NCBI GenBank assembly: GCA_965261645.1
Contig: CBDHDJ010000004.1
Coordinates: 1,263,362-1,327,361, forward strand
DNA: 64,000 bases
From: Alphaproteobacteria bacterium
Lineage (GTDB): Bacteria > Pseudomonadota > Alphaproteobacteria > SHVV01
Reading direction: 5' to 3'
Shown piece by piece: positions 27,839-61,688 of this stretch. Position 1 is the stretch's first letter; every line of letters begins with the position of its first letter. The position numbers were made by a program, and so were the translations under genes. Under the pieces are notes generated by a model. The model did not search any database, was not told where the DNA came from, and saw nothing but the letters and a program-made list of their open reading frames with translations.

Positions 27839-27956
27839 TCCTGCTTCAGCGGCAGACGCGAAGCACGATGCCCTCCGAAGCCTAGGCGAAGGAGTGTCTC
27901 CCGAAGCTCGTTCGCGGGCAACGGGAGACTGCCAGGTGGTATGTCTATTTCCTCGA

Positions 27957-28969: not shown

Positions 28970-29201
28970 CATCAACCAGGATGAGCCAGAGCCTCCGTTA
29001 AGAACAAGCCCAGATGTCCCAAATGTTTTGATGACGGACATCTTGGTGGCACAACCCATCGGACTTGCCTTTTGAGCGATTTCGAGCCACGCTCAACTTG
29101 GCTGAAGGGTGCCACATGGGAAATCCCGGTTGATTCAACAAATCGAGGATAGGACCCGCTCTGCTGACGCGATGATCGGCGGAGCGGGCAGGCGGTGAGC
29201 G

Positions 29202-30383: not shown

Positions 30384-30400
30384 GGTCCCCGCCAGACAAA

Positions 30401-30429
30401 ACAAGCCCCGCACGAGGCGGGGCGCTTGT
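30401..30429 (+). terminator. stem-loop terminator candidate after the Rieske gene
   Basis: ACAAGCCCCGC-ACGAG-GCGGGGCGCTTGT forms an 11-bp stem with one bulge. The U-tract is weak. Confidence 0.35.
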
Positions 30430-30668
30430 CGAAACGCAGAGGCGCTCGAACTACATGACGTCCTTGGGCAGATCCTCGTTGGTGAAATAGGCTTTTAATG
30501 TATGGGTGCGCCGGCGAGGTGGATACGGCGCAACAGACCCAGGCAAGGGGATCCGAACCGATCTGACACTTGCGCGAGATCCTGCAAAGCAGGACACCCT
30601 CGCGTCCATTGCGATGAAGCACGCCATGATGGAAGCATGATGAAACCGTCCACAAAACGTGTCGCGCA

Positions 30669-31886
30669 TTGAACAAGCTGGCCCTGACCAGCGACGCCAT
30701 CGAGGCGCTGGAGCCCGGGGACAAACCCTGGATCGCCTGGGATGATCAACTCACGGGCTTTGGCGTCCGGGTGCATCCCTCCGGGACCAAATCCTTCATC
30801 GTCAACTACCGCGCCGGAGACGGCGGCAGAAAAGCCCCTAACAAGCGCGTCGTTCTCGGCCACCATGGCGAGATATCGCCCGGCCGGGCGCGGCGTCTGG
30901 CGCGGCAGGTCCTGGACGAGGCCACCGCCGACCCGGCGGGCGGGCGCCCCGCGACGCCGGGCATGCCCGTGCTGGAGCAGGCCTTTGAGGCGTACATGGC
31001 GGCCAATCCCCACCGGGCCGAGCGCACCAACGAGATTGACCGTGACAGATTCAAGCGATGTCTCGGCGACTGGCAGATGCGTCCGCTCGATGCTATCACT
31101 CGCCGGGACGTGGAAGGCCCTTTCAACCGCATCACCGGGGATAGCGGCTGGTCGATGGCCAACCAGTCGATATCGCTCCTGCGTTCGATCTATCGCCGAT
31201 CCAGTGTCGATTTCGAGGACTTGCGCAATCCGGTTGATCTGTGGCTCGCCGGCGGCGGCAGGTATCATCGCCCGAGACGGCGCAAGATCTCCGCCCCGGC
31301 CGAGGTGCTGCCGTGCTGGAAGAAGGGCATCGAGTCGACGGTCGGCATGATGGCGGCCCGGGACGCATTGTGGTACGGGCTCTATACCGGCATGCGCCTG
31401 AACGAAGTGCTGCCCCTGCGCTGGGAGCGCGCGGACATGGCGGGGCTAGTCTTCCGGGTTGAGGAGACCAAAACGGGCGAGCCTCTGGAATTGCCCATCA
31501 CCCGGCAGCTGGCGGCCATCCTCGAACGCCGTTGGGCGGCGCGCGAGGCGCTGCCGGGCAGTCTTCGCGACTGGGTGTTTCCGTCCAGCCGGCCCGGCAC
31601 TCTGGGCCATGTCGCGACCCTGATGCCATACTATGCACCGATCGGCAAGGCGGGTGGGGCCAGGTTCTGGTTCCACGCTCTGCGCAACTGCTTCATTACG
31701 GTGGCCGAGCGCGAGCTGATACTGCCGCGGAGCCTGACCAAACGGCTGGTCAACCACGCCCGCTCCAGCGACATCACCGAAGGATACGCTGCCGAGTGGA
31801 CCGTCGGGCAACTCCGTGAACCTGCACAGCGCATTGCGGACCGGATCGAGGCGTTGATGAACGCTCGTGGGGCCGATACGGCCTGA
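30669..31886 (+). CDS. int: tyrosine-type site-specific integrase, P4-like with N-terminal arm-binding domain
   Basis: TTG start. DUF4102-like N-terminus (FGVRVHPSGTKSFIVNYR), then catalytic R...HxxR...Y residues (WFHALRNCFIT ... GY). Lies 2.8 kb from tRNA-Ser. Confidence 0.85.
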   Translation: MNKLALTSDAIEALEPGDKPWIAWDDQLTGFGVRVHPSGTKSFIVNYRAGDGGRKAPNKRVVLGHHGEISPGRARRLARQVLDEATADPAGGRPATPGMPVLEQAFEAYMAANPHRAERTNEIDRDRFKRCLGDWQMRPLDAITRRDVEGPFNRITGDSGWSMANQSISLLRSIYRRSSVDFEDLRNPVDLWLAGGGRYHRPRRRKISAPAEVLPCWKKGIESTVGMMAARDALWYGLYTGMRLNEVLPLRWERADMAGLVFRVEETKTGEPLELPITRQLAAILERRWAAREALPGSLRDWVFPSSRPGTLGHVATLMPYYAPIGKAGGARFWFHALRNCFITVAERELILPRSLTKRLVNHARSSDITEGYAAEWTVGQLREPAQRIADRIEALMNARGADTA

Positions 31887-40670: not shown

Positions 40671-41990
40671 TCATTGTGGCGGAATGCCGGATTTAGCGGC
40701 TTCGGCGTGCGGCGTGACCGGTCCAGTGTTCGCCGCCGCCAGGTCCCGCCAGCGGGTGGTGTACCGCGGGGACAGGTGCTCCTGGCGCATCCGCCACTCC
40801 GCAGTGCTGGCCGCGAGACCGAGGCCGATCGAGCCCCGCCCGAACCGCCCGTTGATCCGATCCATCGCCTGCATCAAGCGGCCGTTCTCCAACGGTCTGT
40901 CCTGGAACAGCGATCCAACCGCATCAGCGGCCGGCGACAGGTCAAGGAGCATCACGCCGGCCTTGCGGTAGGCAAAGCCCTCGCGCCAAAGGCGCTCGAG
41001 GATTCGCAACGCCGCCGCGACGATAACGCGGTTGTCGGCGGTTGGCGCCGGGAACGCTGCCGATGCGGCGGTCGTGTATTGTGGGGCGGCGGTATCGAAC
41101 CTGTCGGTCGCGATGGACACCTGCAGATTGCCGCAGACTTGATCGGCCTGACGGATCTTCTCCGCCGTCCTTTCCGCGAAGGATACGATGGCGTCGCGAA
41201 CCTGCTCCCTATCGCTAATGGCCCGGCTGAAGCTTCGCGAACAGCAGGTGGTCTGTTTGGCGGCGGGCTGTGTCTCCAATTCATGACAGGCGATGCCGCG
41301 CAGCTCGTGCACCGTCCTGAGCCCAGTCACTCCCATGCGCTGGCGCACCCAGCCATCGGGCGCATCGCGCAGGTCCAGCGCGGTCCCGATACCGCGCCCG
41401 GCCAGCATCCTCGACCAGCGGCCGCCGATGCCCCAGACATTGCCCGCGGCCGTCCTGGAGAGCGCCGGGCCGACCCAGGCGGGGTTGCCCGACAGGTCAA
41501 GAACCCCTCCCGTCCGTGGCGCGCTTTTCGCGATCCTGTTGGCGATCTTGGCCAGGGTCTTGGTCGGGCCGATCCCGATCGATACCGGGATGCCGGTCCA
41601 GCGGCGGACCCGGGTGCGAAGATTGCGGCACCACCGGGTCAGGTCGGGAACCGCCAGGCGGTCGAGATCGAGGAAGCTCTCGTCGATACTGTAGACCTCG
41701 ATGCGCGGCGCTTCGGCGGCCAGAATGCTCATCACCCGTTCCGACAGGTCGCCATAGAGCGCGTAGTTCGAGGACAGCACCGTGACATCGTGGCGTTCGA
41801 CGAGGCGCTTCGCCTGGAACAGCGGGACGCCCATGGCGATGCCGAGTGCCTTGGCCTCCTGGGAGCGGGCGACGATGCAACCATCGTTGTTGGACAGCAC
41901 GACGATGGGGCGGCCGGCGAGCGAAGGTTGGAACACCCGCTCGCACGAGGCATAGAAGTTGTTGCAATCGACCAGGCCGATCGTCGTCAT
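40671..41990 (-). CDS. umuC: Y-family translesion DNA polymerase V catalytic subunit
   Basis: N-terminal IMS domain [17 protein letters not shown] ... SIDESFLDL. Sits downstream of umuD. Confidence 0.85.
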
Positions 41991-41994
41991 GGAC

Positions 41995-42444
41995 CTAACG
42001 CGCGCAGTGCCGGCGGATGCTGTGGGTAACGACACCCCAGGCCTCGCAACCGGCATCGTCGAGGGCGATATCGGGAAAAGCCGGATTCTCGGCGTAGAGG
42101 ATCAGGGCGCCATTGCTCTTTCTCAGGCGTTTGACCGTCAGTTCGCCATGCAGGACGGCGATGACGATATCGTCGGCCTGGGGCGCGATGGCGCGGTCGA
42201 CAACGAGAAGGTCGCCGTCGAAAATTCCGGCATCGCGCATGGATTCGCCCTGCGCGCGGATGAAAAAGGTCGCGGCCGGGCGGCGGATCAGATGCAGATT
42301 GAGATCAAGCTTGCCCTCGATATGGTCGTCGGCGGGGCTTGGAAAACCGGCGGGTACCCTGGAGCCGTAAAGTGGCAGGGCGAGTTCGGTGGGCTGATCG
42401 GTGAAACGATGCAAGGAGGCGGCCCTCAGTGTTGACACGAACAT
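41995..42444 (-). CDS. umuD: LexA-like S24 peptidase, pol V accessory subunit
   Basis: GFPSPADD ... cleavage-site region and Ser/Lys dyad (GESMRDAG ... TVKRL). The exact start is uncertain: the LexA box overlaps the Met at 42444. Confidence 0.8.
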
Positions 42445-42453
42445 AACATGAAC
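42439..42453 (-). promoter_or_regulatory. alphaproteobacterial-type LexA (SOS) box
   Basis: GAACATAACATGAAC, a perfect GAAC-N7-GAAC direct-repeat operator, positioned at the umuD start. Confidence 0.6.
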
Positions 42454-42674
42454 AAACAACACTGGTTGTCAAGATCGTGCGGCGTGTTGAGTGCTGTCCC
42501 GATCCGAACATTCCTTCCGCCAGGGACCCATCGGCCGTTTGCCGTTCGCTCGAGAGCCTCCAGATTAGAGTCTGGCACTCAAAATGACGTCTCTCGCCGC
42601 GTTCGATGCCGTGAGGACGCGCCATTGCCCATGAGGTCGAGGAGAGAGGGCGCCGGTCCAGCCAACCGCGCGGC

Positions 42675-45600
42675 TTACTGCAGGCGCATTCTCAGGCTCT
42701 TGGACTTCTTGCGGGTCTGGCGTTTCTTCTCCTCGTGCTTCTCGTCCTTTTTGAACTCGCGCTCGCGATAGTCGTCGAACGCCTTCTGTGCCGCTATGCG
42801 CTCGTCCCCCGTTGCGTTGTACGCGGCCGATTGAAGCCGGCGGAACTCATGGGCCTTGCTTTGGGCTTCGCGCCTGCGCTCTTCGTCCGTTTGCGGCGAG
42901 GAGGGCTGTTGTCGGGTCTCTTCATGTATGTCGCGGGCGTGGCGGCGGTCTTCCCCGGGCGTGGTGTAGTGTTTGGACTCGCGCTCGCGATAGTCGTCGA
43001 ACGCCTTCCGTGCTGCTATGCGCTCGTCCCCCGATGCGTGGTAGGCGGCCGACTGAAGCCGGCGGAATTCATGGGCCTTGCTTTGGGCTCCGCGCGCGCT
43101 CTCTTGGGGCGTTGGTGCCGGGGAAGAGCGCTCCTGGGTTTCTGTTACGGCGTTCTCGCGGATGGCGGCGCTGTCCCGCCGGATCGCCTCGCGAAGGTCC
43201 GAGAGCGCCCATTTCAGGCGTGTATCGCCGATCAGGATGTGATCGAGATGCACACCGTAGGCCTCCTTGTCCGAGAGAATGGCCTCACCCGCCGCCGCCA
43301 GGCGGTCCGCTTCCTGCCTCCAATCCGGATGATCCGGTACCTCGGCGGTCGGAATATCGAGGCTCTCCGCCGCGCTTTGAAGGGCGGCGTAATTGCCCAT
43401 GTGCCGTTCGGCCGCGTCAAGATAGTCCACGACGAAATTGCGCGCCGAGAAATCCCGTTGATGATTTTCGAGCGCCCGGATCATGGGTGCCCGTGTCTCG
43501 GCGGCGATATCCCGGTTATCCGCGAGCGCCTGCATGCGCGGCATCATGTCCGCATACCCCTTGGCGTAGAATATAGGCTCCCCGGTTTGTTGGACCCTTT
43601 CGATCACGCTGTTCCAATCCCGCCGCAAGGCTTCGTAGGGTTCCAGCCAGTCCGGCTTTGCGGTTTCCGCGTCTGTTGCGGGCGCCCCCGCATCGGCCGT
43701 CGTCGCGGCAGGACTGCGGGATGGCGCTGTCGTCGCGGTCCGCTCCACCGTTTCGGCACGCCCGTCCAGCGCAGCATGATCGTCCTCCAAAGGCAACTCG
43801 CCTTGCCGCAACTCCGGCCCAGGTTGCTGTTCCGGAGCCTGTTCAGCCTCCCGTCTGATCCGATGCACGTAGCGCATCGTGGCCGCGCGCCGGTGGCGTT
43901 GCGCCCGTGTATGGAGTTCCTCGAAGGCGTCGAGATCCTTGCGACCGATACCGCCGCGTTCTGCCAGCAGGGAGGCGAAGTCGTCCGGCCGGGCGCGGAA
44001 GGCTTCGGCCTGTTTAAGCAGTGCCGAGTGACGGGTGAGCGTCTCCTGGTAAGCAGGCCCAAGTGCCACGGTATCGCCTTGCGTGCGGGTGCGCTCGCGC
44101 AGATCGTCGTATGCCGCTAGAACCTCTTGGTGACCAGCGGCGAAGGTGGAGACCGCCTGGGCATGGCGCCAGCCGAAGGCGGTGCGCCGGACATCCCGCG
44201 CGATGCGAGCCAGCGCATTGTCGTTCGCCACCGGACGGGCTTCCAGCGGCTCCCCCCGGGTTTCTCGAATTGACCGGGAATTGTTCTCCCGGACATTCTC
44301 TCGGCTATCTTGCCATATGCCATCGGCCATGTAGTCGAGCGCCGCCTCCTTGGGCTGCGACCGTGACCAGCGTTCGGCCAGCCAGGCCCGGACCTCGGTG
44401 TCCGTCACCGCAACTTCCCGGTCGTTGTCCGCTCGCCTGTCGGCGATATCGAGAACGAGCGGTGCCCGGTTAACGTAGATGTCGAGCCTCTCGCGATGGC
44501 GTGTCGCCGCGGGATAGATGGTTTCACGCGCGGGCCTTGCATCGGCCAGCAGGAACGTCCGGTCCACGGTCAACCCCTGGGCCGAGGTGATTGTGAGCGC
44601 ATAGCCATGATCGAGACGGATATTGCCGTACCAGTCGCGGATTTCGTCGTGGTGGAACGATACGGTCCGTCCATCCTCGGTGCGAGCCGATATCAGGACA
44701 CTCGGCTCCGTACCGGCCTCGCCTCTTTGAACCTTGAAGTCGTCGACCGTGATCACGGTGCCGTTGAACAGCTGCTTCTCCCAGTGGGTGGCGCCGATAC
44801 GCAGCCGGTCGCCGCGCGCGATCTCCAGCGGCGAGGTTGTTCGCTCGTCTTCCGTTCCCCGGCTTACGATTACCGTTACCCGGTCCGTATCGGGCTGTTC
44901 CCCATCCGTTAGCGCGGCGAAACGACGCTCCCGCATCAGATGCGACAGTGCCCGCACTTCGGCTCGTGTGCGCGCCAGCACCACGCTAGACTTTCCGGGG
45001 TTCGCCCGCTGGTAGCGGTCCCAGTCATCAACCAGACCGGTCAACGTCTTTTCTTCGTCGTACCCGATATGGAACCGATCCCTTGCGTGGTGAGCCGCTA
45101 TGGCCGATGCCGCGTTGCCATCGCGCAGCGCTTCCGACGCTGCCACCTGCCACGGTGTGAATACAGCCTTATCCACCATCTCATCGTATTCAGTAAGAAT
45201 GCGGGTGCGTTCCTGCCCTCCCATCATCCCCGTGCGGAACCGCGCAGCCTCTGGATTCTCGCCATGAACATGGACCAGAATATCTTCTAGGTCGGCCTTC
45301 TGGCGGCGGATTCGGTCAACCCTCACGCTGCCAACAGCGTCGCGCACTAACCTCAACCCCGGTCCCGCCTCAACGGGTTGTTGCTGTTGCGTGTCGCCCG
45401 CGAAGACGATTTTCGCCCCATGACGTTCTGAGAGTTGGAGAATGTGATGCGCCTGGCGGGTCGACAGCATCCCCGCCTCGTCGACGATGATGGTGGTGTC
45501 TCCATCGATCTCGATACCGCCACGCGCGGCGAGGCGCAGCAGCTTGTCGACGCAGAACGGCCGCGCATCGACATCGTTACCCAGCGCTACGGCGGTGCGC

Positions 45601-47096
45601 CAAGCCACAGCTGTGGCGATGATGTTGTTCCCGTGTTCGCGGTAAAGATCAGCGATGGGTCGCAGCGTCGTGGTCTTGCCCGAGCCTGCCGCTGCCTCGA
45701 TGATGGCGACCCGGCCGCCGGATGAGGTGACCGTCCTTATTGCCGTGATCTGTTCTTCGCTCAACGGATAACCCGCCGCCAGAAGCCCCGCCACCTTTGC
45801 CTCGATGGCCTGGGCGGACAGGGAATGTCCCGTACCTGCGGCCATTCCTGCCGCCATGTCACGGACTTCAAGCTCCATTTGGAGGTTGTGACGTGTTGAA
45901 TAGAGCCTGGTATGCATCATGTCAGCCCGGCCTTCGGCCGACCGTGGCGGCCGGGTCAGGCGCACGACCTCCGGGCTCAGAAGAACACGCTCTATGCTTG
46001 TCGCGACCGCATCGCGGTTCAGGAGTCCGGCGGTGGCATTGCCGACCCGCTCGACGATATCCGGCAGTCGGAAGACTGCTTCCTCGCGTGTAAGGCGGTA
46101 CGGTAGATCTTCCAGAATCGCGGTTAAGTCTCGGATCTGTTGCAGTGTAATATCCTCAACTTTGCCCAATAGCGAGACGATCAGCGCCTCGCGTTCTATA
46201 AAGCCGTCCGCTTCGCCACGCCAGCGCGCGTGCCGGATCTCCGGGTCATTGTCGGGAGATTTGCCGGCCCGTGTGATCTTGTTCGCCGCCGCTGCACGCG
46301 GCGCGTTGCCCTCGACCGCAAAGCCCATCTCCCTGGCGGCGTCGATTATCGCCGCCCGGCGCTTTGACCAGTGTCCCATCAGATCTTCGGGCATGCCTGC
46401 GACCCGCGTGAACTCTCCATCCTTGCCGTACTGTTCCATGCGGATGCCGAGACGCTCTTGCAGACTCCATGCCATGGCATTGCGGTAGACTGCCCCCGCC
46501 GCCTTCATCCAGTTGTAGACCGGGTGTTGATGCAAAGCCCGGTACTTGCCGTCCTGGTGTGTCCGGGCGGCATTGAAGATCACGCAGTGGGTATGAAGCT
46601 GCGGGTCGTTGTCCCGGCTGGTTCCATGCTGGAACATAGCGGCCGTGATATCGGCCGGCAGCACCTCTATATCGCCATCCCGATTACGGATGCGGGTATA
46701 GGCGCAATGGCGCAGCACCGTTTCTTCCAGTGCTATACGCGCGGCATCGTTATGCGCCTGCTCGATCTCCGAACGCAGACCGGGGTCGGCGACCGCCCAC
46801 AAGGCGGAGACGCTTTTGTCGGCGGAGAAGGTCATGTCGAGACCCGCCGAACGGCGCTCGCTGCCGGCATTCTGTGTGAGTTTAGCTCCGGTCTTAGGTG
46901 CGAAGCCGTTGTACAGCCGGTGGAAGTCACTGCTATCGATCTTGCCGCCATCGGCCAGACCGAACAGGCCCTTCGGATTGAACCAGACGCCATCCGGTTC
47001 TTCTCCCGCTGTGTAGTATTCGTTGGGATGACGGAAGGAGCGTTGGCTCTCCAGGTAGTAGGCAGCTGACGCGGCCTGGGCGAGAGTCGCTACCAT
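42675..47096 (-). CDS. traA: conjugative relaxase-helicase, MobF/TrwC-TraI type with extended C-terminal tail
   Basis: N-terminal relaxase His-triad region (HGTSRDNDPQLHTHCVIFN), a central AAA_30/UvrD-like helicase (Walker A IIEAAAGSGKTTTL), and a long charged C-terminal tail with an internal duplication. Confidence 0.85.
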   Translation of the reverse strand: MVATLAQAASAAYYLESQRSFRHPNEYYTAGEEPDGVWFNPKGLFGLADGGKIDSSDFHRLYNGFAPKTGAKLTQNAGSERRSAGLDMTFSADKSVSALWAVADPGLRSEIEQAHNDAARIALEETVLRHCAYTRIRNRDGDIEVLPADITAAMFQHGTSRDNDPQLHTHCVIFNAARTHQDGKYRALHQHPVYNWMKAAGAVYRNAMAWSLQERLGIRMEQYGKDGEFTRVAGMPEDLMGHWSKRRAAIIDAAREMGFAVEGNAPRAAAANKITRAGKSPDNDPEIRHARWRGEADGFIEREALIVSLLGKVEDITLQQIRDLTAILEDLPYRLTREEAVFRLPDIVERVGNATAGLLNRDAVATSIERVLLSPEVVRLTRPPRSAEGRADMMHTRLYSTRHNLQMELEVRDMAAGMAAGTGHSLSAQAIEAKVAGLLAAGYPLSEEQITAIRTVTSSGGRVAIIEAAAGSGKTTTLRPIADLYREHGNNIIATAVAWRTAVALGNDVDARPFCVDKLLRLAARGGIEIDGDTTIIVDEAGMLSTRQAHHILQLSERHGAKIVFAGDTQQQQPVEAGPGLRLVRDAVGSVRVDRIRRQKADLEDILVHVHGENPEAARFRTGMMGGQERTRILTEYDEMVDKAVFTPWQVAASEALRDGNAASAIAAHHARDRFHIGYDEEKTLTGLVDDWDRYQRANPGKSSVVLARTRAEVRALSHLMRERRFAALTDGEQPDTDRVTVIVSRGTEDERTTSPLEIARGDRLRIGATHWEKQLFNGTVITVDDFKVQRGEAGTEPSVLISARTEDGRTVSFHHDEIRDWYGNIRLDHGYALTITSAQGLTVDRTFLLADARPARETIYPAATRHRERLDIYVNRAPLVLDIADRRADNDREVAVTDTEVRAWLAERWSRSQPKEAALDYMADGIWQDSRENVRENNSRSIRETRGEPLEARPVANDNALARIARDVRRTAFGWRHAQAVSTFAAGHQEVLAAYDDLRERTRTQGDTVALGPAYQETLTRHSALLKQAEAFRARPDDFASLLAERGGIGRKDLDAFEELHTRAQRHRRAATMRYVHRIRREAEQAPEQQPGPELRQGELPLEDDHAALDGRAETVERTATTAPSRSPAATTADAGAPATDAETAKPDWLEPYEALRRDWNSVIERVQQTGEPIFYAKGYADMMPRMQALADNRDIAAETRAPMIRALENHQRDFSARNFVVDYLDAAERHMGNYAALQSAAESLDIPTAEVPDHPDWRQEADRLAAAGEAILSDKEAYGVHLDHILIGDTRLKWALSDLREAIRRDSAAIRENAVTETQERSSPAPTPQESARGAQSKAHEFRRLQSAAYHASGDERIAARKAFDDYRERESKHYTTPGEDRRHARDIHEETRQQPSSPQTDEERRREAQSKAHEFRRLQSAAYNATGDERIAAQKAFDDYREREFKKDEKHEEKKRQTRKKSKSLRMRLQ
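42752..43115 (+). repeat. two roughly 125-bp near-identical direct repeats (period 221 bp) inside the 3' end of traA
   Basis: TTGAACTCGCGCTCGCGATAGTCGTCGAACGCC... recurs at 42973. It encodes a duplicated approximately 42-aa AQSKAHEFRRLQSAAY..DDYRERE module. Confidence 0.6.
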
Positions 47097-47497
47097 GGTG
47101 CTCGCTCCGTGGCGGCGCTGTTGGTGAGATATATAACCTGGTCCAGGCGCTGCCCGATTTCGACCGTGATAATTCTCATGGTTCCAGTCCCGGAAATTCC
47201 TACGCTTTACAACAGGTTACGGAAATACCCGGACGATTTTGTACAACATGGCAGGGTTTTATGAACTCATTGAAATCTAAGCACATAAAGGTGCAGAGGT
47301 GTGCGTAGTTTTACATACCCTCTGATGTTTCGCGAGAGGATATAGACTGCATAATCGGAGATCAAGGGGAATTTGGCCCTGCCTTGGTACGTGGCGGCAC
47401 ACTTGAAATGGCCGTTCGAATGGCGGAATTGACCGGCTGTCGGGCCAATGGCAGAATCCGGGCTTGCTCGCGGATTCTGGAAACAGCGGGGAGATGG
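47097..47497 (+). other. candidate oriT / divergent promoter region between traA and a small accessory gene
   Basis: Locally low GC. Direct repeats CGGAAAT(T/A)CC and T(T)ACAACA(G/T)GG are present, along with a GTGCGTA word reminiscent of MobF nic regions. No nic site is proven. Confidence 0.3.
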
Positions 47498-47803
47498 ACG
47501 ATGCCGGCGAAACGCTTCAACGAAGCGGATATCGACTTCGATGCTTTAGACGGCGAGTTGGCGAAATTTGAGCCACCGAAGCTGAGCCTGACGGATGTAC
47601 TGGACTGTTTGCGGAAGCGGCTGGTCAAGCAACAGGCGAAGGGGGTGACGGTGGCTCAAATGCATGAGGTGTTGAAATCGAGCGGCATCGACATCACGGA
47701 ACGCAGTCTGCGGACGGTTCTGGACAAGGGCGTATTGCCGGGACGGAAGGTTGCCGAGGCCGCTAGGTCCATGGTGTCGGAAGAAGGCAGTGATCCGTTC
47801 TGA
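47498..47803 (+). CDS. small hypothetical protein divergent from traA, possibly a relaxosome accessory protein
   Basis: 101-aa ORF starting at MPAKRFNEADIDF with helical, charged character. Its position mirrors accessory-protein genes of MobF systems. Confidence 0.35.
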   Translation, partial: TMPAKRFNEADIDFDALDGELAKFEPPKLSLTDVLDCLRKRLVKQQAKGVTVAQMHEVLKSSGIDITERSLRTVLDKGVLPGRKVAEAARSMVSEEGSDPF

Positions 47804-48145: not shown

Positions 48146-49075
48146 TTATGCGGCGGCGAGAAGGACGGGGATTCCGACCTTGCGTGCCTTGTCGATCATG
48201 TTATTCGTGATGCCGGAGCCGGGGAAGGCGACGAGGCCTTTCGGCAGGAAGTTGAGCAGGACGTCGTTACGCCGGAAGGGCGCGGCTTTGCCGTCCCGGT
48301 CCCAGTTCGGCTTGCAGACGACCTGGTGAACGCCGTTCTTCTCGGCCCAGCTTGCCGCGATTTTCTCCGCACCGGGTCCACCGCCGTGTAGCAGGACCAT
48401 ATCGTCGTACTTGAGCTTGATGCTGTCCAGGGAGTGCCAGATGGCGGTGACGTCGTCAAAGTCCTTGCCGCCGGTGAAGGCGACCAGGGTGCCCTCGGGC
48501 AGATGTGCAGAGGTCTCACGGTCCTTGCGGGCGCGGAGGTAGTCGCGGGCGTCGATGGCGGCGGAAGTTAGTTTGCCGGTCTGGCTGCTGTGCGACCCGT
48601 TGCGCGGACGCCAGGTATCGCCGGTCTCGGTGCGGTATCCCTCTGCGGCGAGGTCGCGCATGGCCTCGAAGGCATCGCGGCGATTACCGAGGTTCTGGAC
48701 CCGATCGGTGAGGCGTTCGAGTTCGCAGGACTTGATCTCGGAGCCGTCCTGCTCGCGCTGGAGGTCTTTCATTTCGGGCGCGATCTTGTCGATGCCGCGG
48801 TCGAGGCGCTGGACCTGGGCGTGCAGTGCATTGACGAAGCCCCAGAGGAGGCTCTCGCGTTCGTCGGAGAGCTGCGTGCCGTCCGGTGCGACCACACCGG
48901 CCAGGATGTGGATCGCTTCCTCGATTCCGGAAAGTGCTTCGTCCTCGTTCCAGATATCCCGGTTGTCGAACTCGTCGGGACCAGGGGTCGCGCCGAACAG
49001 GGCAGCCTGTTCGCAAGCCATTGCGGTCGGAGATGACGTTTCGGTTCTGATGAAGTTCTGCATGAGTCTCTCCAT
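48146..49075 (-). CDS. DUF2493 (SLOG superfamily) domain protein with an unknown N-terminal domain
   Basis: C-terminal roughly 110 aa (LVAFTGGKDFDD ... LLHGGGPGAEK ... VAFPGSGITNNM) look like a DUF2493/SLOG Rossmannoid domain. The N-terminal roughly 200 aa were not recognised. Confidence 0.55.
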   Translation of the reverse strand: MERLMQNFIRTETSSPTAMACEQAALFGATPGPDEFDNRDIWNEDEALSGIEEAIHILAGVVAPDGTQLSDERESLLWGFVNALHAQVQRLDRGIDKIAPEMKDLQREQDGSEIKSCELERLTDRVQNLGNRRDAFEAMRDLAAEGYRTETGDTWRPRNGSHSSQTGKLTSAAIDARDYLRARKDRETSAHLPEGTLVAFTGGKDFDDVTAIWHSLDSIKLKYDDMVLLHGGGPGAEKIAASWAEKNGVHQVVCKPNWDRDGKAAPFRRNDVLLNFLPKGLVAFPGSGITNNMIDKARKVGIPVLLAAA

Positions 49076-49351
49076 TGCTATGTTGCTATCCTCCGAGGCG
49101 GGCTGCCCCGTCGTGATGATTCTTTGGATCACGCGCTCGCAGCGGAGCCACGATGGCCGGAATGCCTGCGCCGGAGTAATGCGCGAGTGGTGCGGGCGCA
49201 GGGAGCGGAGCGAGCGAGCCACGGTCGCGTATTCCACCGGCGCTAGCCGCGCAGCGGCGTGGCATTACGAGCTATCGCCGCAACGGAGCGTAAGCGGAGT
49301 GGAGGACCCCGCAGGGGTTGGCACAGCGAGAACGTGTGGGACAATGAGGCA

Positions 49352-50389
49352 TCATGACGGGCTAATTATTCTCCCACTCCCACGCCTCTCTTCCACCGTT
49401 TCCCCGGACTCGGTGCTTACAATAAGGGGCGCGATTCGAGCCGCGAGAGTTTCTTCTCCGAAGGCAATGAGATCGTCATTAAAATCGGAGTGTTCGGGAA
49501 CGATCACGATTGAGGGAATGCTGCGTTCCACGCAACGGCGCTGAAGATGATTTGCGGCGTGCCCGCCTTCCATGTCTTTATCGCGGGCGATGATCAACAG
49601 CGCGAGGTCTTGGGGCGGTTCGAAGGCGCCGAGACTGCCCGCTGATAGAGCCGCCGCGGCATGAATGCCGGGGACGGCGGTGACCAGCGATAGAGCGGTT
49701 TCGATGCCCTCGCCGGCAAGCAGGATCGCGCCGGAGGCGGATCCGCCGAAGCGCACGGCCCGGCCGTAGACGCGCCCAAGCGCTTTGCGAGGGCGGGCGA
49801 GGTTGGCTTTCTCGGGTAGATTGGGATCGAGCCAGGTGCGTTGCACGCCCTCGATGGCGCCATCATCGCCGGTGACGGCGGCGACAAGTGCCGGGAGGCG
49901 GTGGATGCCGTCATCGCCGCGATGGATGAGATCGGGATGAAACCGCAAGGCCGGGAAGCGGCAATGGCCGATGGCGCGGGCGTGCAGGTAGGCTTCCGCA
50001 TGGGTGCCATCGATGGGCCGGCAACGCCGCCAAAGGCGGCGCGCCGCTTCTACACGGTCATAGCTACAGGGGTGATCGCCGCCATTGGCGGGAGTGGACG
50101 GTGGCAGGGCGAGGAACGCGAGGGCCTCCTCCATGGCGTGCCGCAGCGATGCTCCGCCGGTGTGCAGACGGATGAGATCGAGCAGATCGCCATGCTCGTT
50201 GGTCGCGGCGTCGGTCCATTTTCCGGGTATGCCTGGAGGCGCCAGACGCACAAAGAGGGAGCGACCCTTACGGCCGCTTGTGTCGCCGATGGTCCAGTAT
50301 CTGCCCTGCCTGCGTCCGCGGGGAAGGTAGCAGCGGCAGACATCTTCTGCCCGTGTGCTTAACGCAGCGGCAATTTCAGTGGCGTTCAT
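49352..50389 (-). CDS. Toprim-domain protein, conjugative-element primase-like
   Basis: Toprim acidic motifs (ILLAGEGIETALS ... LLIIARDKDMEGG) are preceded by a Cys/His-containing N-terminal domain. Confidence 0.6.
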   Translation of the reverse strand: MNATEIAAALSTRAEDVCRCYLPRGRRQGRYWTIGDTSGRKGRSLFVRLAPPGIPGKWTDAATNEHGDLLDLIRLHTGGASLRHAMEEALAFLALPPSTPANGGDHPCSYDRVEAARRLWRRCRPIDGTHAEAYLHARAIGHCRFPALRFHPDLIHRGDDGIHRLPALVAAVTGDDGAIEGVQRTWLDPNLPEKANLARPRKALGRVYGRAVRFGGSASGAILLAGEGIETALSLVTAVPGIHAAAALSAGSLGAFEPPQDLALLIIARDKDMEGGHAANHLQRRCVERSIPSIVIVPEHSDFNDDLIAFGEETLAARIAPLIVSTESGETVEERRGSGRIISPS

Positions 50390-50602: not shown

Positions 50603-51046
50603 TTAGAACGGAATTTCGCTATCAACCACCGTCGCAGCGGTTTCGGCGGAAGGCACGGTCTTGTCGTTCATCGCCGGTGCGCCGTTACCGTTCGGCTTAT
50701 CCAAGAACTGGACCCTGCCGCCGGGAACCAGAAGGATCTCGGTCGAGAACCGGTCGCTGTCCTCGCCGTCCTTGCGCCACTTGCGGGTCTGCAGCTTGCC
50801 CGAGACGTAAACCAGGCGGCCCTTCTTCGCGTGCTTCTCCATCATCTCCACCAGGCCGTCCTGGAAGGTGACGATGCGGTGCCACTCGGTGCGGTCCACC
50901 TTGTCCCCTGAGTTTTTGTCGAGGTAACTTTCATCGGTCGCGATCGAGACGTTGGCGACGCGGCCGCCGTTGGTGAGGTGGCTGATGGTGGCGTCGGCGC
51001 CGAGGCGTCCGATGAGTTGCGCGTTATTCAATCCGAACATGATCAA
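50603..51046 (-). CDS. ssb: single-stranded DNA-binding protein
   Basis: OB-fold N-terminus (LIGRLGAD ... EWHRIVTF) and an acidic C-terminal tip DSEIPF. Confidence 0.85.
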   Translation of the reverse strand: MIMFGLNNAQLIGRLGADATISHLTNGGRVANVSIATDESYLDKNSGDKVDRTEWHRIVTFQDGLVEMMEKHAKKGRLVYVSGKLQTRKWRKDGEDSDRFSTEILLVPGGRVQFLDKPNGNGAPAMNDKTVPSAETAATVVDSEIPF

Positions 51047-52354: not shown

Positions 52355-55300
52355 TTACGCTGGGGTCGCAGCCGCGAGCGGCCAGCGTTCGAGGATGCGG
52401 CCGAGGTCGATGTATTCGGGCACGAACACACGGGTCCGCCACGAGACGATCTCGGTGGCGCACCCCATGCGCTTGAGTGCCGCGAGATCGTTGTCGGCCG
52501 GTCCCTCGATCTCGACGCGGCCAGCGCCCATCAGGCGCCGCCTTGCGAGGCGCCAGCCGTTGGCGAGATCGAAGGACGCACCGCGGATCAGGATCGCCTC
52601 GTGCATCTCGGCCGAACTCATGACCGGTCCGCCGGCCAGTCCGAAGGCGTCGCGAAAGGCGTGCGCCTGCTCGGGCGTCAGAACCCGGCCGAGCAGGCTT
52701 TCCCCGGCATCGGTCGCAAGCCGGCGCACCCGCATGTTCTCGCCCGGCAGGCGGTCCCATATGGGGAGCAGTAGGCCGGTGACCAGCCACAGGCGGGATT
52801 CGGTGTGGCTGGGCAGCCCTTCGATCTCCGCATCCCACAAACTGCGCCAGCGATCTTCGCCTGCATCCTCCCAGTTCGAGGCGGCAAGTTCCTCCGCGGC
52901 CATGGGCTCGCGGGCGGCGGGACGGACCAGGCGGACCCGGGCTTCGACCCCGCCGTCCTCGAACATCCGCGAGGGCGCGGGCAGAACAACGGCTGCACGC
53001 TTCGAGCGGGTGTTGATGACGGGCCGCCCGTCGCGCCAGGCGAGGGCATCGTCCGCCTGGAGCGGCACGAGCCGGTCGCGGCGGACGATCTCGACAAGTT
53101 CGGTGGTGGCGCCCGAGGCTTCATGAACGTGAACCGCCTCGCGCGAGGAGATGCAGAGCGAGTCGGCCCGGATGGTCTCGACACCCTGCTCGTGGGTCCC
53201 GGCCTCGATGGCCTGTTCGATATTGGCCTCGATGCGGGTTTCCAGCTCGGCGAACAGTTCGTTCTGCTCGGCGATGGGCAGGGCCAACAGGCGGTTGAGG
53301 AACCGGGGCATCGGCGGCAGGTCTTCCTTGAGCGAGCCTTCCCAGATCAGCTTCAACCCGGTGGCGTCCTCGAAGCGGTCCATGGACCAGCCCGCAATGT
53401 TGCCGCGCCACAGCGCGATGTAGAACTGGCGCAGCGCCACCTTGGCGTAGGGGCTCTCCAGATTGTCGCTGGCCCGGAACAGGGTGGCGTCGCCGCCGCC
53501 CATGGCGGTCTGCGAATCGCGCTGTCCCCGGGTGATGGCGCCGAGGCTGTCGAGACGCCGGGCGATGGTGGCGATGAAGCAGCGCTCGCCCTTCACATCC
53601 GTGGTGACCGGGCGGAACAGAGGGGCCGAGGCCTGGTGCGTTCGATGGGTGCGGCCCAGGCCCTGGATTGCTTGGTCGGCCCGCCAGCCCGGCTCCAGCA
53701 GGTAATGGATACGCCGCGCAGTGTTGCCGCAGCCGAGATCGGCGTGATAGCTGCGCCCGGTGCCGCCGGCCATGGAGAAGACGAGGATGCGTTTACCGCC
53801 CGCCATGAAGGCGGCGGTCTCGGCGAGGTTGGCCGAGGCCGGGCGGTTGCGTAGCGCCAGGCGCTCGCCGGACGTATCGGCGATACGCAAGATCCGGCGC
53901 GAGCGGCCGGTGACCTCGGCGACGGCCTCGTCGCCGAAGCGGTGGAGGATCTGGTCGAGCGCCGCCTGTACCGGCGGCAACGCCGCGAGCTTCTCGATCA
54001 ACGCGTCTCGCGCAGCGACTGCTTCCTGGCACAAGACCGGGTTGCCCTCGGCGTCGGTCACGGGCCGCGACATGAGATTGCCCTCGTCGTCGGTGAAGGG
54101 TTCCTGCAATTGCACCGGGAAGGCGTGGGCCAGATATTCCAGGCACGCCTCCCTCGGCGTCAGGTCGACGGAGATGTCGTCCCATTCCGAGACGGGGATC
54201 TCGGCGATGCGCCGGTCCAGCAAAGCCTCGCCGGTGGAGACCAGCTGGATGACGCAGGCATGGCCGGCCTCGAGATCGCTCTCCACGGACCGGATCAGCG
54301 AGGGGCATTTCATGGCGGTCAGGAGATGGCCGAAGAAGCGCTGCTTCGCCCCCTCGAAAGCCGACAGCGCGGCGGACTTGGCGTTCTTGTTCAGGGTGGC
54401 ATCGCCTTCCATGATGCCGGTGGCTTTCAGGGCGTCTTCTATATTGCGGTGGATCACCTTGAAGGCCCCGGCATAGGCGTCGTAGATGCGCCGCTGTTCC
54501 GCAGTCAGGGGATGTTCGAGCAGCTCGACCTCGACTCCGTCATAGCTGAGTGCGCGGGCCTGATAGAGCCCGAGGGCCTTCAGATCGCGGGCAACCACCT
54601 CCATCGCCGCGACCCCGCCGGCCTCCATGGCGGTGACGAAATCGGTACGCTGTTCGAAGGGCGTCTCGCCCCCTGAACCCGCGCCGCCCCACAGGCCGAG
54701 GCGCCGCGCATAGGCCAAACCGGGCACCGTGGTGGCCCCGGTGGCGGAGACATACAGGATACGGGCATCGGGCAAGGCGTTCTGCAAACGCAATCCGGCG
54801 CGTCCCTGCTGCGAGGGGGCCGTATCGCCGCGCGATCCCTTGGACCCTGCGGCGTTGGCCATGGCGTGCGCCTCGTCGAACACGATGACGCCGCCAAAGG
54901 CATGGCGGGAGTCTTCATCCATACGATCCGCAAGCCAGCCCACGATCTGTTCGAGGCGCGAGGACTTTTCCTGGCGGGCGGGCGAGCGCAAGGTTGCATA
55001 GGTGGTGAACAGGATTCCGGACTCTTGTGGAATATCGGTCCCCTGGCGGAACTTGCCCAACGGGATGATGTCGGCCTCGCTGCCGCCGATCGCGGCCCAG
55101 TCGCGGCGCGCGTCCTCGAGAAGCTTGTCGGAGGCGGACAGCCACAGCGCCCGGCGGCGGCCGCGCAGCCAGTGGTCGAGGATAATGGCGGCGACCTGGC
55201 GGCCCTTGCCGCAACCGGTGCCGTCGCCCAGCATCCAGCCGCGCCGGAAACGCACTGGCGCGGACAGGGCTTCACCGTCGCCGGCCGCATCCGCGCCGGG

Positions 55301-56971
55301 TTCAAGACCGGCGCTTACGGCTTCTCCCTTATCTGCTTTATTGGCGGTCTCCGGGACGCTATCGCAGTCATCGCTGTTGTCATCGTCATCGTCCGCGACG
55401 CGTGCGACGGTCTCCCAGCCCTCGCCAATGCGGTAGAGCGCGGAAAGATGGCGGCCGTGGGCCTGACCGGCGAGGATGACGCTTTCGAGCTGGGCGTCGG
55501 ACAGTAGTTCGTCCGTCACGATACGCACGGGCAGCATCGGGCGGTAGGCCGGCACGGGATGGGGCACCGCCGCCATGGCGGCGGATTGCACCAGCGGCGT
55601 CGGATGTTCGCAGGCGCCGGGAATGCGCGCGGTCCGGGGACACCACGGCTCGTAGACGCCGGCATGGGTGGTCTCCGGTTCGTCTGCAGTGCCTTGCCCG
55701 TTTGCGGATGGGGTTTCGTAGTCGAGTTCGGCCACCGGCCCCCAATCACGGACTTGCGGGGCTGCGGGTTTGGTGTTGGGCGCGGTGGCCGCTGTGCGCT
55801 TTCGTGGGGCCGGCCGTGCGGCGGCATGGCCGAACACATCGCCGGCCGGAACAAGCGCAGCGGCTATTGGCACGACCGCCTGCCGTTGCGGCACATTGGC
55901 GGCGATGGCTGCAAGCAACCCGGCGGCGGTGGGGACGGATGCCCGTGCGTCGATCGGGACGCCCTGGGCATTGGCGGGATCACGGTCGATTACGGTCAGC
56001 CGGGTATCGAAGGTCGTGCCGCGCCGTGCGTAGGCGCGCCCGTCGATGGCGATGGAAAAGACGGTGCGCGGCGGTGGATCGAGGCGCTCAAAAGCGCGGC
56101 TCCAGGCGGCATCGCCTGGGATGCAGCCGGCCGACGTGATCGCCACCAGCCGCCCGCCCGTCGGAAGCATGGAGAAGGCGGAACGGAGGTGACGCAAATC
56201 CGCATCATGGCGGATGCGCTGGACCCCGGGGCTTGCCGAAAACGGCGGGTTCATCAACACCACTGTGGGATGCAGGCTCGGGAGATAATCGGCGATGGAC
56301 TCCGCGTTGTGACGGGTGACCGGCGCGTGCTCGAACAATCCGGCAAGCAACCCGACGCGGACGGCGGCGATCTCGTTCAGGTGCAGGGGATTCCCCGAAC
56401 GCGTGTCATCGGCGTGCTTGCCGAGAGCGCATTCGGCCATGACGGCGAGCATGCCGGTGCCGGCCGAGGGCTCCAGCACGATGTCGCCGGGCCGGATGGC
56501 AGCGGCTTGCAGCGCGGCGTAGGCGAGCGGCAAGGGGGTGGAGAACTGCTGCGGGGCAAGCTGTTCCTCCGACCGCCTTGTCTGGGACGGCTCCAGCGCC
56601 GCCAGGGTCTCCAGCATGGCGAGCATGGCGGCGGCCGATCCAGGTCCGGCGCCCGCCTCGCGGCGCATGAGACGGCCGTAACGCTGGATGAACAGCACCA
56701 TTGCGGCCTCGGCCGCTTCGTAGGCGTCCTTCCAGACCCAGGCTCCTTGCGTGTCATTGGCGCCGAAGGCCGCGCTCATGGCTTCGCGCAGGGCCTTTGC
56801 ATCGAGCGCGCGGCCCGCCTCCAGGCTGGGAAGCAGAGCGGTTGCGGCGGCCAGCAACGCGGCCGGCTTGGAGAGGACGCCCGGGGTATCGGCAATAGCT
56901 GGGGATGCGGGAAGGGGCTGGACGGCGGGCGGACGCGCGGGCGCGTTCGCCGCCGGTTGGGCGTCGAGCAT
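52355..56971 (-). CDS. N6-adenine methyltransferase fused to SNF2/strawberry-notch-like helicase (1538 aa)
   Basis: Methyltransferase motif I VLEPSAGTGMLAV and motif IV VVLMNPPF. P-loop GDGTGCGKGRQVA with DEAH-like VIVFDEAHAM. C-terminal GRTHRTHQ ... ARRLDSLGAITRG typical of strawberry-notch Helicase_C_4. Confidence 0.8.
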   Translation of the reverse strand: MLDAQPAANAPARPPAVQPLPASPAIADTPGVLSKPAALLAAATALLPSLEAGRALDAKALREAMSAAFGANDTQGAWVWKDAYEAAEAAMVLFIQRYGRLMRREAGAGPGSAAAMLAMLETLAALEPSQTRRSEEQLAPQQFSTPLPLAYAALQAAAIRPGDIVLEPSAGTGMLAVMAECALGKHADDTRSGNPLHLNEIAAVRVGLLAGLFEHAPVTRHNAESIADYLPSLHPTVVLMNPPFSASPGVQRIRHDADLRHLRSAFSMLPTGGRLVAITSAGCIPGDAAWSRAFERLDPPPRTVFSIAIDGRAYARRGTTFDTRLTVIDRDPANAQGVPIDARASVPTAAGLLAAIAANVPQRQAVVPIAAALVPAGDVFGHAAARPAPRKRTAATAPNTKPAAPQVRDWGPVAELDYETPSANGQGTADEPETTHAGVYEPWCPRTARIPGACEHPTPLVQSAAMAAVPHPVPAYRPMLPVRIVTDELLSDAQLESVILAGQAHGRHLSALYRIGEGWETVARVADDDDDNSDDCDSVPETANKADKGEAVSAGLEPGADAAGDGEALSAPVRFRRGWMLGDGTGCGKGRQVAAIILDHWLRGRRRALWLSASDKLLEDARRDWAAIGGSEADIIPLGKFRQGTDIPQESGILFTTYATLRSPARQEKSSRLEQIVGWLADRMDEDSRHAFGGVIVFDEAHAMANAAGSKGSRGDTAPSQQGRAGLRLQNALPDARILYVSATGATTVPGLAYARRLGLWGGAGSGGETPFEQRTDFVTAMEAGGVAAMEVVARDLKALGLYQARALSYDGVEVELLEHPLTAEQRRIYDAYAGAFKVIHRNIEDALKATGIMEGDATLNKNAKSAALSAFEGAKQRFFGHLLTAMKCPSLIRSVESDLEAGHACVIQLVSTGEALLDRRIAEIPVSEWDDISVDLTPREACLEYLAHAFPVQLQEPFTDDEGNLMSRPVTDAEGNPVLCQEAVAARDALIEKLAALPPVQAALDQILHRFGDEAVAEVTGRSRRILRIADTSGERLALRNRPASANLAETAAFMAGGKRILVFSMAGGTGRSYHADLGCGNTARRIHYLLEPGWRADQAIQGLGRTHRTHQASAPLFRPVTTDVKGERCFIATIARRLDSLGAITRGQRDSQTAMGGGDATLFRASDNLESPYAKVALRQFYIALWRGNIAGWSMDRFEDATGLKLIWEGSLKEDLPPMPRFLNRLLALPIAEQNELFAELETRIEANIEQAIEAGTHEQGVETIRADSLCISSREAVHVHEASGATTELVEIVRRDRLVPLQADDALAWRDGRPVINTRSKRAAVVLPAPSRMFEDGGVEARVRLVRPAAREPMAAEELAASNWEDAGEDRWRSLWDAEIEGLPSHTESRLWLVTGLLLPIWDRLPGENMRVRRLATDAGESLLGRVLTPEQAHAFRDAFGLAGGPVMSSAEMHEAILIRGASFDLANGWRLARRRLMGAGRVEIEGPADNDLAALKRMGCATEIVSWRTRVFVPEYIDLGRILERWPLAAATPA

Positions 56972-57217: not shown

Positions 57218-57697
57218 ATGAACCGAACTCTCGTCATCTTCGTTGCATTGTCCGTGTTCTTCTCTATCGGTCCTCTCGCCGATGAAATCCCTTCCGGATT
57301 CGACCCGGGCAGTTCCAAAGCCAAGGGATTGATCCTCACGTTCGAAGACTGGCCGCCGGATAGTGTGGACACGGACCCTCTTCTCCAAAAGCTTCATTCC
57401 GCCGGGCTCAAGGCGGCGCGCAAACTGCCGCGGTTCAGGGTTTGGGTGTTCGAATGGGATGAATGGCAGGAGGGCCGCAGGGCCGAAAACCTGTGTATTG
57501 AACTGCTGCTGGACGATCGAACCTCTTCCCTGTTGGAGAGCTGTGAACCGGATTACTTGCTGCATCCCGCCCGGCCCGCGGCCGGCGGCAACCAGCCGCG
57601 GTGTCATGCCGGTCCGATGTCGATGCGCTCGCCCCAGGGCTCGCGGTTCCTTGTCCCCGGCGGCGACGGCCCCCAGTTGCAAAAAATCACGGGATAG
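57218..57697 (+). CDS. secreted hypothetical protein
   Basis: Clear signal peptide MNRTLVIFVALSVFFSIGPLA. Its 3' end overlaps the convergent vWA gene by about 94 nt, so the C-terminal extent is doubtful. Confidence 0.3.
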   Translation: MNRTLVIFVALSVFFSIGPLADEIPSGFDPGSSKAKGLILTFEDWPPDSVDTDPLLQKLHSAGLKAARKLPRFRVWVFEWDEWQEGRRAENLCIELLLDDRTSSLLESCEPDYLLHPARPAAGGNQPRCHAGPMSMRSPQGSRFLVPGGDGPQLQKITG

Positions 57698-61584: not shown

Positions 61585-61688
61585 CGGGATGCACCCGCGC
61601 CCCGGCCCGGTGTCGGCGGGCCGAAAGCCGGCCCCGGCCCGGAGTGGCGCGAAGCAGGCGGTTTGCGATGGATGAATGCCGTCGGCGA

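Follow-up and report, generated by a model that had tools for sequence, protein, structure and literature searches.

This analysis concerns a window of 64,000 nucleotides (nt) from an Alphaproteobacteria bacterium of the SHVV01 lineage (assembly GCA_965261645.1, contig CBDHDJ010000004.1, positions 1,263,362 to 1,327,361 of the forward strand) and, within it, the gene of a relaxase-helicase of 1473 amino acids (aa) that lies on the minus strand at 42675-47096, with its stop codon at 42675-42677, according to a list of open reading frames (ORFs) and their translations. A repeat search of the window found one family of direct repeats, at 42711-42921 and 42933-43143 (211 nt, 79% identity), and the only long ORF at this site is the relaxase gene, which carries the repeat at its 3' end. 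We show that the repeat arose long ago, when 222 nt (74 aa) were duplicated in tandem and in frame, which doubled a 44-aa hairpin module in front of the basic C-terminus of this MobF relaxase-helicase, itself borne by an integrative conjugative element (ICE).

An old in-frame duplication in a MobF relaxase-helicase

Judged by its sequence, the protein is a MobF family relaxase with a fused SF1B helicase, an assignment that we make because the profile match, the HUH motif with its tyrosines and the fused helicase that define this family were all found. The TrwC-type relaxase (HUH) domain at aa 10-297 (46206-47069, minus strand) matches Pfam PF08751 with 230.8 bits against a cutoff of 25 (E = 3.3e-68), and the score for the NCBIfam MobF profile NF041492 is 211.8 bits, with a cutoff of 100. 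The SF1B (RecD-like) helicase region at aa 445-885 (44442-45764, minus strand) is marked by the Pfam families AAA_30 on aa 445-604 (E = 1.6e-39) and, weakly, UvrD_C_2 on aa 830-871, together with partial RecD2 and TraA_Ti matches. The translation further contains YY pairs at aa 13-14 and 27-28 near the N-terminus (AASAAYYLES..NEYYTAGE) and the histidine-triad motif DPQLHTHC of HUH type (...QHGTSRDNDPQLHTHCVIFN...), which we take to hold the catalytic tyrosines and histidines by analogy to TrwC rather than by structure alignment. Membership in the TraI(F) and TraA(Ti) equivalogs was considered and rejected, with all scores far under the cutoffs. The F-type TraI profiles TIGR02760 (178.8 bits against 929.85) and PRK13709 (109 against 2212) align with only the N-terminal 600 residues, and the matches of the Ti-type TraA profile TIGR02768 (237 against 590), the Dtr relaxase profile PRK13826 (144.8 against 1317) and the TraA profile PRK13889 (167.5 against 1015) are limited to the helicase and post-helicase region, up to aa 1075. 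No Pfam family covers the residues past ~885, and the Pfam and NCBIfam profiles agree with the initial annotation of this DNA, which had described a MobF relaxase-helicase with a long C-terminal tail.

The repeat units, delimited at 42711-43143 by the repeat search and a codon-level comparison, start exactly 222 nt or 74 codons apart and share 39/49 identities at the protein level (BLASTP, E = 4e-24). A core of 126 nt is 91% identical between them, compared with ~51% for the remainder of the 222-nt unit. Read codon by codon, ~32 of the 42 core codons are identical, ~6 differ only synonymously and ~4 non-synonymously, as against 37 identical, 6 synonymous and 31 non-synonymous codons over all 74, and the pattern in the core therefore points to selection on the protein as what is conserved. 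By a profile hidden Markov model (HMM) derived from diverse copies, the modules are located at aa 1335-1378 (copy 1, RGAQSKAHEFRRLQSAAYHASGDERIAARKAFDDYRERESKHYT; 42963-43094, minus strand; 75 bits), predicted to form a helix-turn-helix hairpin, and at aa 1409-1452 (copy 2, REAQSKAHEFRRLQSAAYNATGDERIAAQKAFDDYREREFKKDE; 42741-42872, minus strand; 76 bits), which is the more conserved copy. Between them lies a disordered linker (aa 1379-1408; 42873-42962, minus strand) with a predicted local distance difference test (pLDDT) score of 32-37. Both modules thus fall into the last 153 residues of the relaxase, which are 24% K+R and 19% D+E. The initial annotation had reported two repeats of ~125 bp, ~221 bp apart, that encode an internally duplicated module of ~42 aa; this account is accurate, with the spacing being exactly 222 nt, the module peptide that it quoted agrees with the translation, and the repeat search, BLASTP and the HMM concur on the duplication. 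Tandem Repeats Finder did not report the repeat, as expected for only two copies with diverged flanks.

Two other candidates were tried and dropped. With regard to a function of the repeats at the DNA level, we found no promoter-like site in them and terminator-like sites only at background level; the nucleotide conservation of copy 2 against the related loci L011 and L017 is regional, since the whole 3' part of the gene and the downstream umuDC are 93-98% identical. A third, ancient module copy in the mid domain of the protein (described below) had been hinted at by a 25-nt match at 44091-44115 (76%) and weak tblastn matches (E = 0.02-0.2), and was rejected when the module was aligned with the mid and big domains by hhalign and the probabilities stayed below 2%.

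A homologue search over 5.8 billion proteins returned 1935 sequences at E <= 1e-10, the best 120 of which are 79-97% identical to the relaxase, and scanning a single genome of each species yielded 27 loci, all of them in metagenome-assembled genomes (MAGs) of uncultured Alphaproteobacteria (Rhodospirillales, Kaistiaceae and unclassified) and mostly on megabase contigs or whole chromosomes. Among 268 related sequences, an HMM scan detected two modules in 75, one in 34, none in 159 and three in not a single one. The two-copy layout also occurs at loci from MAGs assembled to chromosome level, for which the contig names suggest the use of long reads. In the clade of the window protein, copy 1 is recognizable by the residues KVHEF...YHASG...RESKHYTTP and copy 2 by KAHEF...YNATG...REFKKNEKH, and these differences are fixed over dozens of relatives that are ~10% divergent overall, so that the duplication must be older than the clade, and the two copies have stayed in frame. 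Compared with its counterparts in clade relatives, copy 2 shows 89-98% identity (93-98% with two exceptions) and copy 1 78-96%. Across 127 distinct module copies, the consensus eF.RLQSAAy.A...ER.AA.KaFDdY.eRe is kept, and the linker between the modules varies in length, with an extra 10-14 aa in P0021, P0027 and P0082.

Outside the clade of the window protein, the two copies of the P0082 clade are 78-91% alike (83-91% without one frameshifted fragment) and 59-67% identical to those of the window protein. Because the inter-module linker of this clade shares homology with the longer one in P0021 and P0027, concerted evolution after a single ancestral duplication is likely here. At locus L022, where the copies are 89% alike and 30-33% identical to those of the window protein, the duplication may be an independent one. 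A phmmer search for a portable module in 1.84 billion representatives gave 27 hits, and all that were checked are relaxase tails or tail fragments; as far as these comparisons reach, the module is confined to this lineage. The plasmids of PLSDB (megablast, tblastn) hold no match to the tail, and the full protein matches them only over residues ~25-920, the nearest MobF relaxases listed there being 25-35% identical and devoid of the tail. Searches with tail segments (P0121-P0240, P0263-P0375) gave only ORFs of 147-580 aa that are pieces of relaxase tails, and many related genes therefore appear to be split by frameshifts, either as pseudogenes or through indel errors in long-read MAGs.

Some alleles record recombination between the copies. 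The single module of P0032 has a copy-1-like start (KVHEF) and a copy-2-like end (NATGDERIAAQ...EREFKK), and that of P0034 is copy-1-like up to KAARKAFD and then follows copy 2. Since the crossover points differ, these two must be independent deletions by unequal recombination; P0033 and P0035 are frameshifts and no copy-number variants. Copy 1 of the window protein itself carries copy-2 states at three patches, namely GCC CAT (KAH), ATA (I) and GACGACTATCGCGAG (DDYRE), where its close relatives L011 and L017 carry copy-1 states. These patches, which include 25 consecutive nt without any difference between the copies, would in our reading reflect short-tract gene conversion. From such alleles it appears that the repeats do recombine, but rarely. 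No expansion past two copies was seen among the 268 sequences, and these imperfect copies, 79-91% identical, do not display the wide copy-number variation of a slipped-strand contingency locus. The suggestion in the initial annotation that the repeat is a hotspot of slipped-strand variation is thus weakly supported: the chimeric single-copy alleles and the conversion patches speak for it, and a copy number of only 0-2 as well as the clade-wide diagnostic residues speak against it.

A modular distal tail that diverges far more than the catalytic core

Two AlphaFold2 models of the tail, built with alignments of database homologues, resolve it into a series of helical parts. The mid helical domain (aa 956-1086; 43839-44231, minus strand; pLDDT 93-98), with helices of 54, 22, 12 and 35 residues, is part of the conserved protein, and it is this domain into which the PRK13889 TraA alignment reaches with its end at aa 1075. 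It is followed by an acidic, disordered linker rich in Pro, Ala and Thr (aa 1087-1146; 43659-43838, minus strand; pLDDT ~50-56; net charge -8), which is likely the junction of a cassette, and by a big helical domain of ~170 aa (aa 1147-1320; 43137-43658, minus strand; pLDDT >90) with the invariant residues W, Y, Y, W-R, H-L and D. This big domain is present once in the window protein, three times in tandem in relatives of 1811-1842 aa and not at all in L022; the three copies of P0043 are 63%, 53% and 27% identical to the single copy of the window protein (BLASTP). The helices of the first hairpin are placed at tail residues 191-214 and 218-237, with pLDDT means over 10-residue blocks of 66-86, and the second helix of the second hairpin continues into the low-confidence basic end. 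This C-terminus (aa 1453-1473, KHEEKKRQTRKKSKSLRMRLQ; 42678-42740, minus strand) has a net charge of +8 and is a candidate secretion or recruitment signal.

Small module, mid domain and big domain show no relation to one another, with profile-profile probabilities below 2% (0.6% for mid against big). Pfam searched at E up to 10 placed no family on the big-domain segment and only noise on the other two tail segments, and phmmer of the tail and a big-domain profile against all PDB sequences found nothing meaningful and no BID chain; the tail modules are undescribed.

Sequence comparison showed that the modular distal tail, composed of the linker, 0-3 big domains, 0-2 hairpins and the basic end, is far more divergent than the catalytic core. 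Between the window protein and relatives with other tails, identity is 0.80-0.93 over the three catalytic-core regions (aa 1-885), 0.61-0.84 over aa 886-955, 0.73-0.92 over the mid domain (aa 956-1086) and only 0.15-0.62 from aa 1087 on, with 0.15-0.45 for the linker itself; in relatives of any tail type, the mid domain is 71-92% identical (52% in L018). Values lower than these regional ranges were found throughout for L014 and L018, the two most distant loci. When the proteins were clustered on their N-terminal 880 aa, the tail types came out intermingled and not sorted. The distal part of the window's mosaic relaxase (42675-43838, aa 1087-1473) was compared with L003, L005, L008, L010, L022 and P0082.

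Named by their last residues, the distal cassettes come in at least five alternatives: LRMRLQ (the window protein) and GLRMRL have one big domain and two hairpins, GRSMGM and SWSIRL one big domain and one hairpin, HWSMRI / HMSMRM three big domains and no hairpin, and GLGRSL no big domain and two hairpins; more distant forms also exist. The one-genome-per-species scan found up to five relaxase loci per chromosome, as on OZ253470.1 (L002, L005, L008, L017, L025) and CAUVXB020000002.1 (L003, L009, L011, L020, L023), with differing tail types in each case and four of the cassette types on OZ253470.1. Five loci on single MAG chromosomes imply several related ICEs, or ICE relics, per genome.

The sole feature common to all cassettes is the basic extreme C-terminus with its motif, S-[KR]-[GS]-x(1-3)-[MS]-[RG]-[LIM], which ends nearly every intact relative regardless of its cassette; relatives with intact ends have a mean net charge of +6.1 over their last 25 aa. 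Where an intact-ended protein has a hairpin, it directly precedes this basic end, even if there is no big domain (L022, P0252). The duplicated module would thus be the smallest unit of a highly divergent distal cassette that looks exchangeable, a setting that the initial annotation had missed. That annotation had also called the tail atypical, which does not hold: all 135 of the 135 full-length relatives examined have tails of ~500-950 aa made of like modules, and long C-terminal extensions are documented in TraA relaxases and in the TraI of F/R1 (PMC6509941, PMC5675462, PMC10025392).

Surroundings of the relaxase gene

From Pfam matches and tRNA predictions, the element in the window is an ICE, possibly one rearranged by insertion sequence (IS) activity, and its genes for a type IV secretion system (T4SS), if they exist at all, lie outside the window. 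One end of the integrated element is probably marked by the run from 27748 to 31886, which comprises tRNA-Ser(gga) (27748-27838), an IS6-family transposase (28015-28710), a Rieske ring-hydroxylating oxygenase (29202-30383) and a tyrosine integrase with an Arm DNA-binding domain (30669-31886); at 28-30 kb and 32-34 kb, the GC content is reduced to 0.57-0.59. Between the integrase and umuC are listed, in this order, IS110, IS3-fragment and IS5-like transposases, M23 and LysM proteins and an EF-hand protein. The genes of UmuD (S24 peptidase; 41995-42462, minus strand) and UmuC (Y-family polymerase; 40671-42056, minus strand) follow directly downstream of the relaxase gene and are 93-98% identical at the nucleotide level to the region of L011, and the 5' half of the relaxase gene is less conserved against L011 than umuDC (77-93%, mostly 85-93%). 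Together with the EF-hand gene and three transposase genes, umuDC fills the space equivalent to the site where related loci have the gene of a type IV coupling protein (T4CP).

Upstream of the relaxase gene, a 450-nt intergenic region (47097-47545) of lower GC content with short palindromes, among them a perfect one of 9 nt (47452-47460 with 47471-47479), is a candidate promoter or origin of transfer. A 178-aa ORF is listed between the relaxase and the gene of a SLOG/YAcAr protein (48146-49237), beyond which come DUF7146-Toprim (49352-50389) and SSB (50603-51046) genes. Typical ICE accessory genes follow, i.e., a Strawberry-notch-like helicase of 1538 aa (AAA_34 and Helicase_C_4; 52355-56971, minus strand), of which ~450 N-terminal residues are unannotated, a DUF2201 metallopeptidase/VWA protein (57604-59640) and DUF2958 (61084-61740).

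Pieces of the tail also occur apart from intact relaxases. P0257 (L029 6001-6396, OZ243926.1; also L028) is called as a 131-aa gene and represents an in-frame deletion fusion, the first 62 aa of which derive from the SLOG/YAcAr gene, normally ~2.5 kb upstream of the relaxase, and the last 69 aa from the relaxase hairpin and basic end. Its junction, ..AEG followed by EERQRR.., coincides with the boundary at which the duplicated unit starts. At L025, 6 kb downstream of the intact relaxase, there is an orphan hairpin with basic end (19985-20278), which shares 85-89% identity with relaxase C-termini and is a relic of a relaxase 3' end adjoining a multiply frameshifted gene, whose translation looks Calx-beta/FN3-like by eye only. 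When 4286 ORFs were scanned by regex, nothing other than relaxases and this L025 relic carried the end motif.

A candidate recruitment signal and its relation to known systems

The initial annotation had suggested a repeat-based interaction domain, and this is our preferred reading of the tail module and a plausible one. In the explanation that fits best as a whole, and that we consider about evenly poised between right and wrong, an old hairpin duplication sits in a modular, cassette-like tail whose hairpin(s) and basic end would form a recruitment signal for the T4CP, a role suggested by position, conservation pattern and analogy. While the relaxase is covalently bound to the transferred strand, its tail would be recognised by the VirD4/TraG-type coupling protein of the element, with the hairpin(s) and the basic C-terminal motif acting as a C-terminal recruitment and translocation signal by a logic analogous to the BID domain and positive tail of alphaproteobacterial TraA relaxases. 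The duplication would add a second binding or spacing unit and may be maintained by selection and partly homogenised by gene conversion, and single-copy alleles would arise from occasional unequal recombination.

We favour a signal read by the T4CP because the invariant element is the basic extreme C-terminus, because TraA relaxases use one to two BID domains and a positive tail (PMC6509941, PMC5675462), because cassette-like divergence on a conserved core fits a specificity determinant, and because in three related loci a T4CP gene (T4SS-DNA_transf and TraG-D_C) follows the relaxase at a distance of 6-8 kb downstream (L008 20024-22252, L022 16126-18093 and L023 20138-22117, all on the minus strand). 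Several observations weigh against such a signal. A T4CP gene lies within 10 kb only at L008, L022, L023 and L012, and with three or four loci any comparison of tail and T4CP types is anecdotal. The 64-kb window has no T4CP or T4SS gene, and the cognate partner of its relaxase is thus not seen. No bona fide carrier of the module other than relaxases was found, all candidates being deletion or frameshift relics, which gives no sign of a portable signal. The large sister group with three big domains has no hairpin, and the hairpin is therefore not indispensable. Moreover, the mapped signals of MobF relaxases are internal (TrwC 796-802; TraI 530-816 and 1255-1564; PMC10025392).

The proposal of a T4CP-read signal can be carried further, to a form that we think rather unlikely to hold: the distal tail from ~aa 1087 would be a swappable specificity cassette that chooses the coupling protein or T4SS, enzymes whose relaxase, helicase and mid parts are ~90% identical when compared with the window protein would serve several co-resident ICEs of one chromosome without cross-talk, and the duplication would make a hairpin-hairpin contact intramolecular and thereby tune recruitment. 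Unlikely as well, in our estimate, is that the hairpin serves for oligomerisation or for docking of an accessory protein and is no T4CP signal. A lone 44-aa alpha-hairpin core would then be too small for stability, and two single-copy tails, or one such tail with a partner from the relaxosome, would combine into a four-helix bundle that the duplication turns into an intramolecular pseudo-dimer. Such pairing would suit the hairpins, which keep hydrophobic residues at conserved positions (F, L, A, A, Y / A, F, Y) and are predicted with only moderate pLDDT (66-86), as well as the copy number that never exceeds two and the recurrence of duplication or homogenisation in separate lineages (copies 78-91% alike in the P0082 clade and 89% in L022); however, no partner has been identified, and the position of the module next to the conserved basic C-terminus at intact ends is left unexplained. 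We give little credence to the duplication being a functionally neutral passenger, kept because it is harmless, in a fast-evolving and largely linker-like tail. The distal tail is indeed the most divergent part of the protein, the module is absent from the large sister group, single-copy alleles exist inside the clade and copy 1 evolves faster than copy 2. Yet both copies are in frame with their cores kept across dozens of ~10%-divergent relatives, the few core differences lean synonymous (~6 against 4 non-synonymous codons), and the module consensus is kept between lineages in which the surrounding tail is only 20-30% identical.

It is improbable that the tail domains and hairpins are highly diverged BID domains, which would put the protein into the class of BID-carrying relaxases. 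This class would be consistent with the alphaproteobacterial origin and with helical domains that are elongated, antiparallel and 130-170 aa long, vary in copy number and precede a positive tail; the positive tail of BID-type signals is indeed present, with a net charge of +8 in the last 21 aa. However, neither a sequence match nor a detectable fold match to BID was found, though the sequence negative is a weak one since BID domains are notoriously divergent, with an average similarity of 14% (PMC6509941); BID membership of the tail is not supported. Finally, we consider it extremely improbable that an assembly error produced the repeat or that it is a slipped-strand locus, hypervariable and without fixed copy number. 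Tandem repeats can be mis-assembled, one-copy alleles exist, and many related database ORFs are frameshifted fragments that we attribute to error-prone long-read assemblies, but the copies are easily told apart (79% identical over the unit, 91% in the core), 75 sequences from many assemblies share the two-copy layout together with its diagnostic differences, and no sequence has three or more copies.

The general design of the tail, i.e., variable-number helical modules and a basic end on an alphaproteobacterial relaxase, is already known, and an internal duplication by itself is an ordinary evolutionary event of small practical importance. The more interesting observation is the cassette-like diversity of tails on near-identical cores, with several types per genome. 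How T4CPs recognise relaxases is poorly defined, above all for MobF enzymes and the ICEs of uncultured Alphaproteobacteria, and the family described here offers a natural experiment in which near-identical catalytic cores carry at least five distal tails, several of which a single genome can hold together. Should the tails determine T4CP specificity, exchanging them would offer a direct means to study substrate selection and the ways in which co-resident ICEs keep clear of, or make use of, the transfer machines of one another.

Among known systems, TrwC of R388 and TraI of F/R1 share the architecture of a TrwC HUH domain with an SF1B helicase, and the latter also has a long extension past the helicase, with a translocation signal at residues 1255-1564 (PMC10025392). 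Alterations at TrwC's C-terminal end affect its translocation or recognition by the VirB/D4 system of Bartonella (PMC10025392). In contrast to the relaxase studied here, which scores well below the TraI equivalog cutoffs, the conjugative signals of these proteins are internal (PMC10025392). Arg-rich C-terminal signals are found on substrates of VirB/D4 systems such as VirF, VirE2 and MobA, the latter in its C-terminal 48 aa (PMC10025392). The relaxase resembles them in its short, unstructured and basic extreme C-terminus (...RQTRKKSKSLRMRLQ; net +8 over 21 aa) and in an end pattern that is conserved while the sequence upstream varies. It differs from them in the conserved hairpin module that stands ahead of the basic end in many lineages. 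We know of no published consensus of VirB/D4 signals that includes the terminal hydrophobic-R-hydrophobic ending (LRMRL, WSMRI, RSMGM).

The XVIPCD of Xanthomonas T4SS effectors, a C-terminal VirD4-interacting domain of ~120 aa (PMC8740702, PMC10025392), provides a conceptual parallel, in that a folded domain at the C-terminus docks on the coupling protein. No similarity to it was detected, and its tail is Gln-rich and found on toxins, whereas ours is basic and found on a relaxase. In alphaproteobacterial TraA relaxases and Bartonella Beps, one or more BID domains and a positively charged tail form a bipartite T4SS signal (PMC6509941, PMC5675462). The N-terminal relaxase of these TraA proteins is of the MobA/MobL type and not TrwC/MobF as here, and BID is a four-helix bundle of ~100 aa or more, unlike the 44-aa hairpin that forms the duplicated unit of the window protein. 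What both have in common is an alphaproteobacterial relaxase-helicase with variable-number helical modules after the helicase and a short basic C-terminus, and a copy number of these modules that varies among close relatives, with one to two BID domains there and 0-3 big domains and 0-2 hairpins here.

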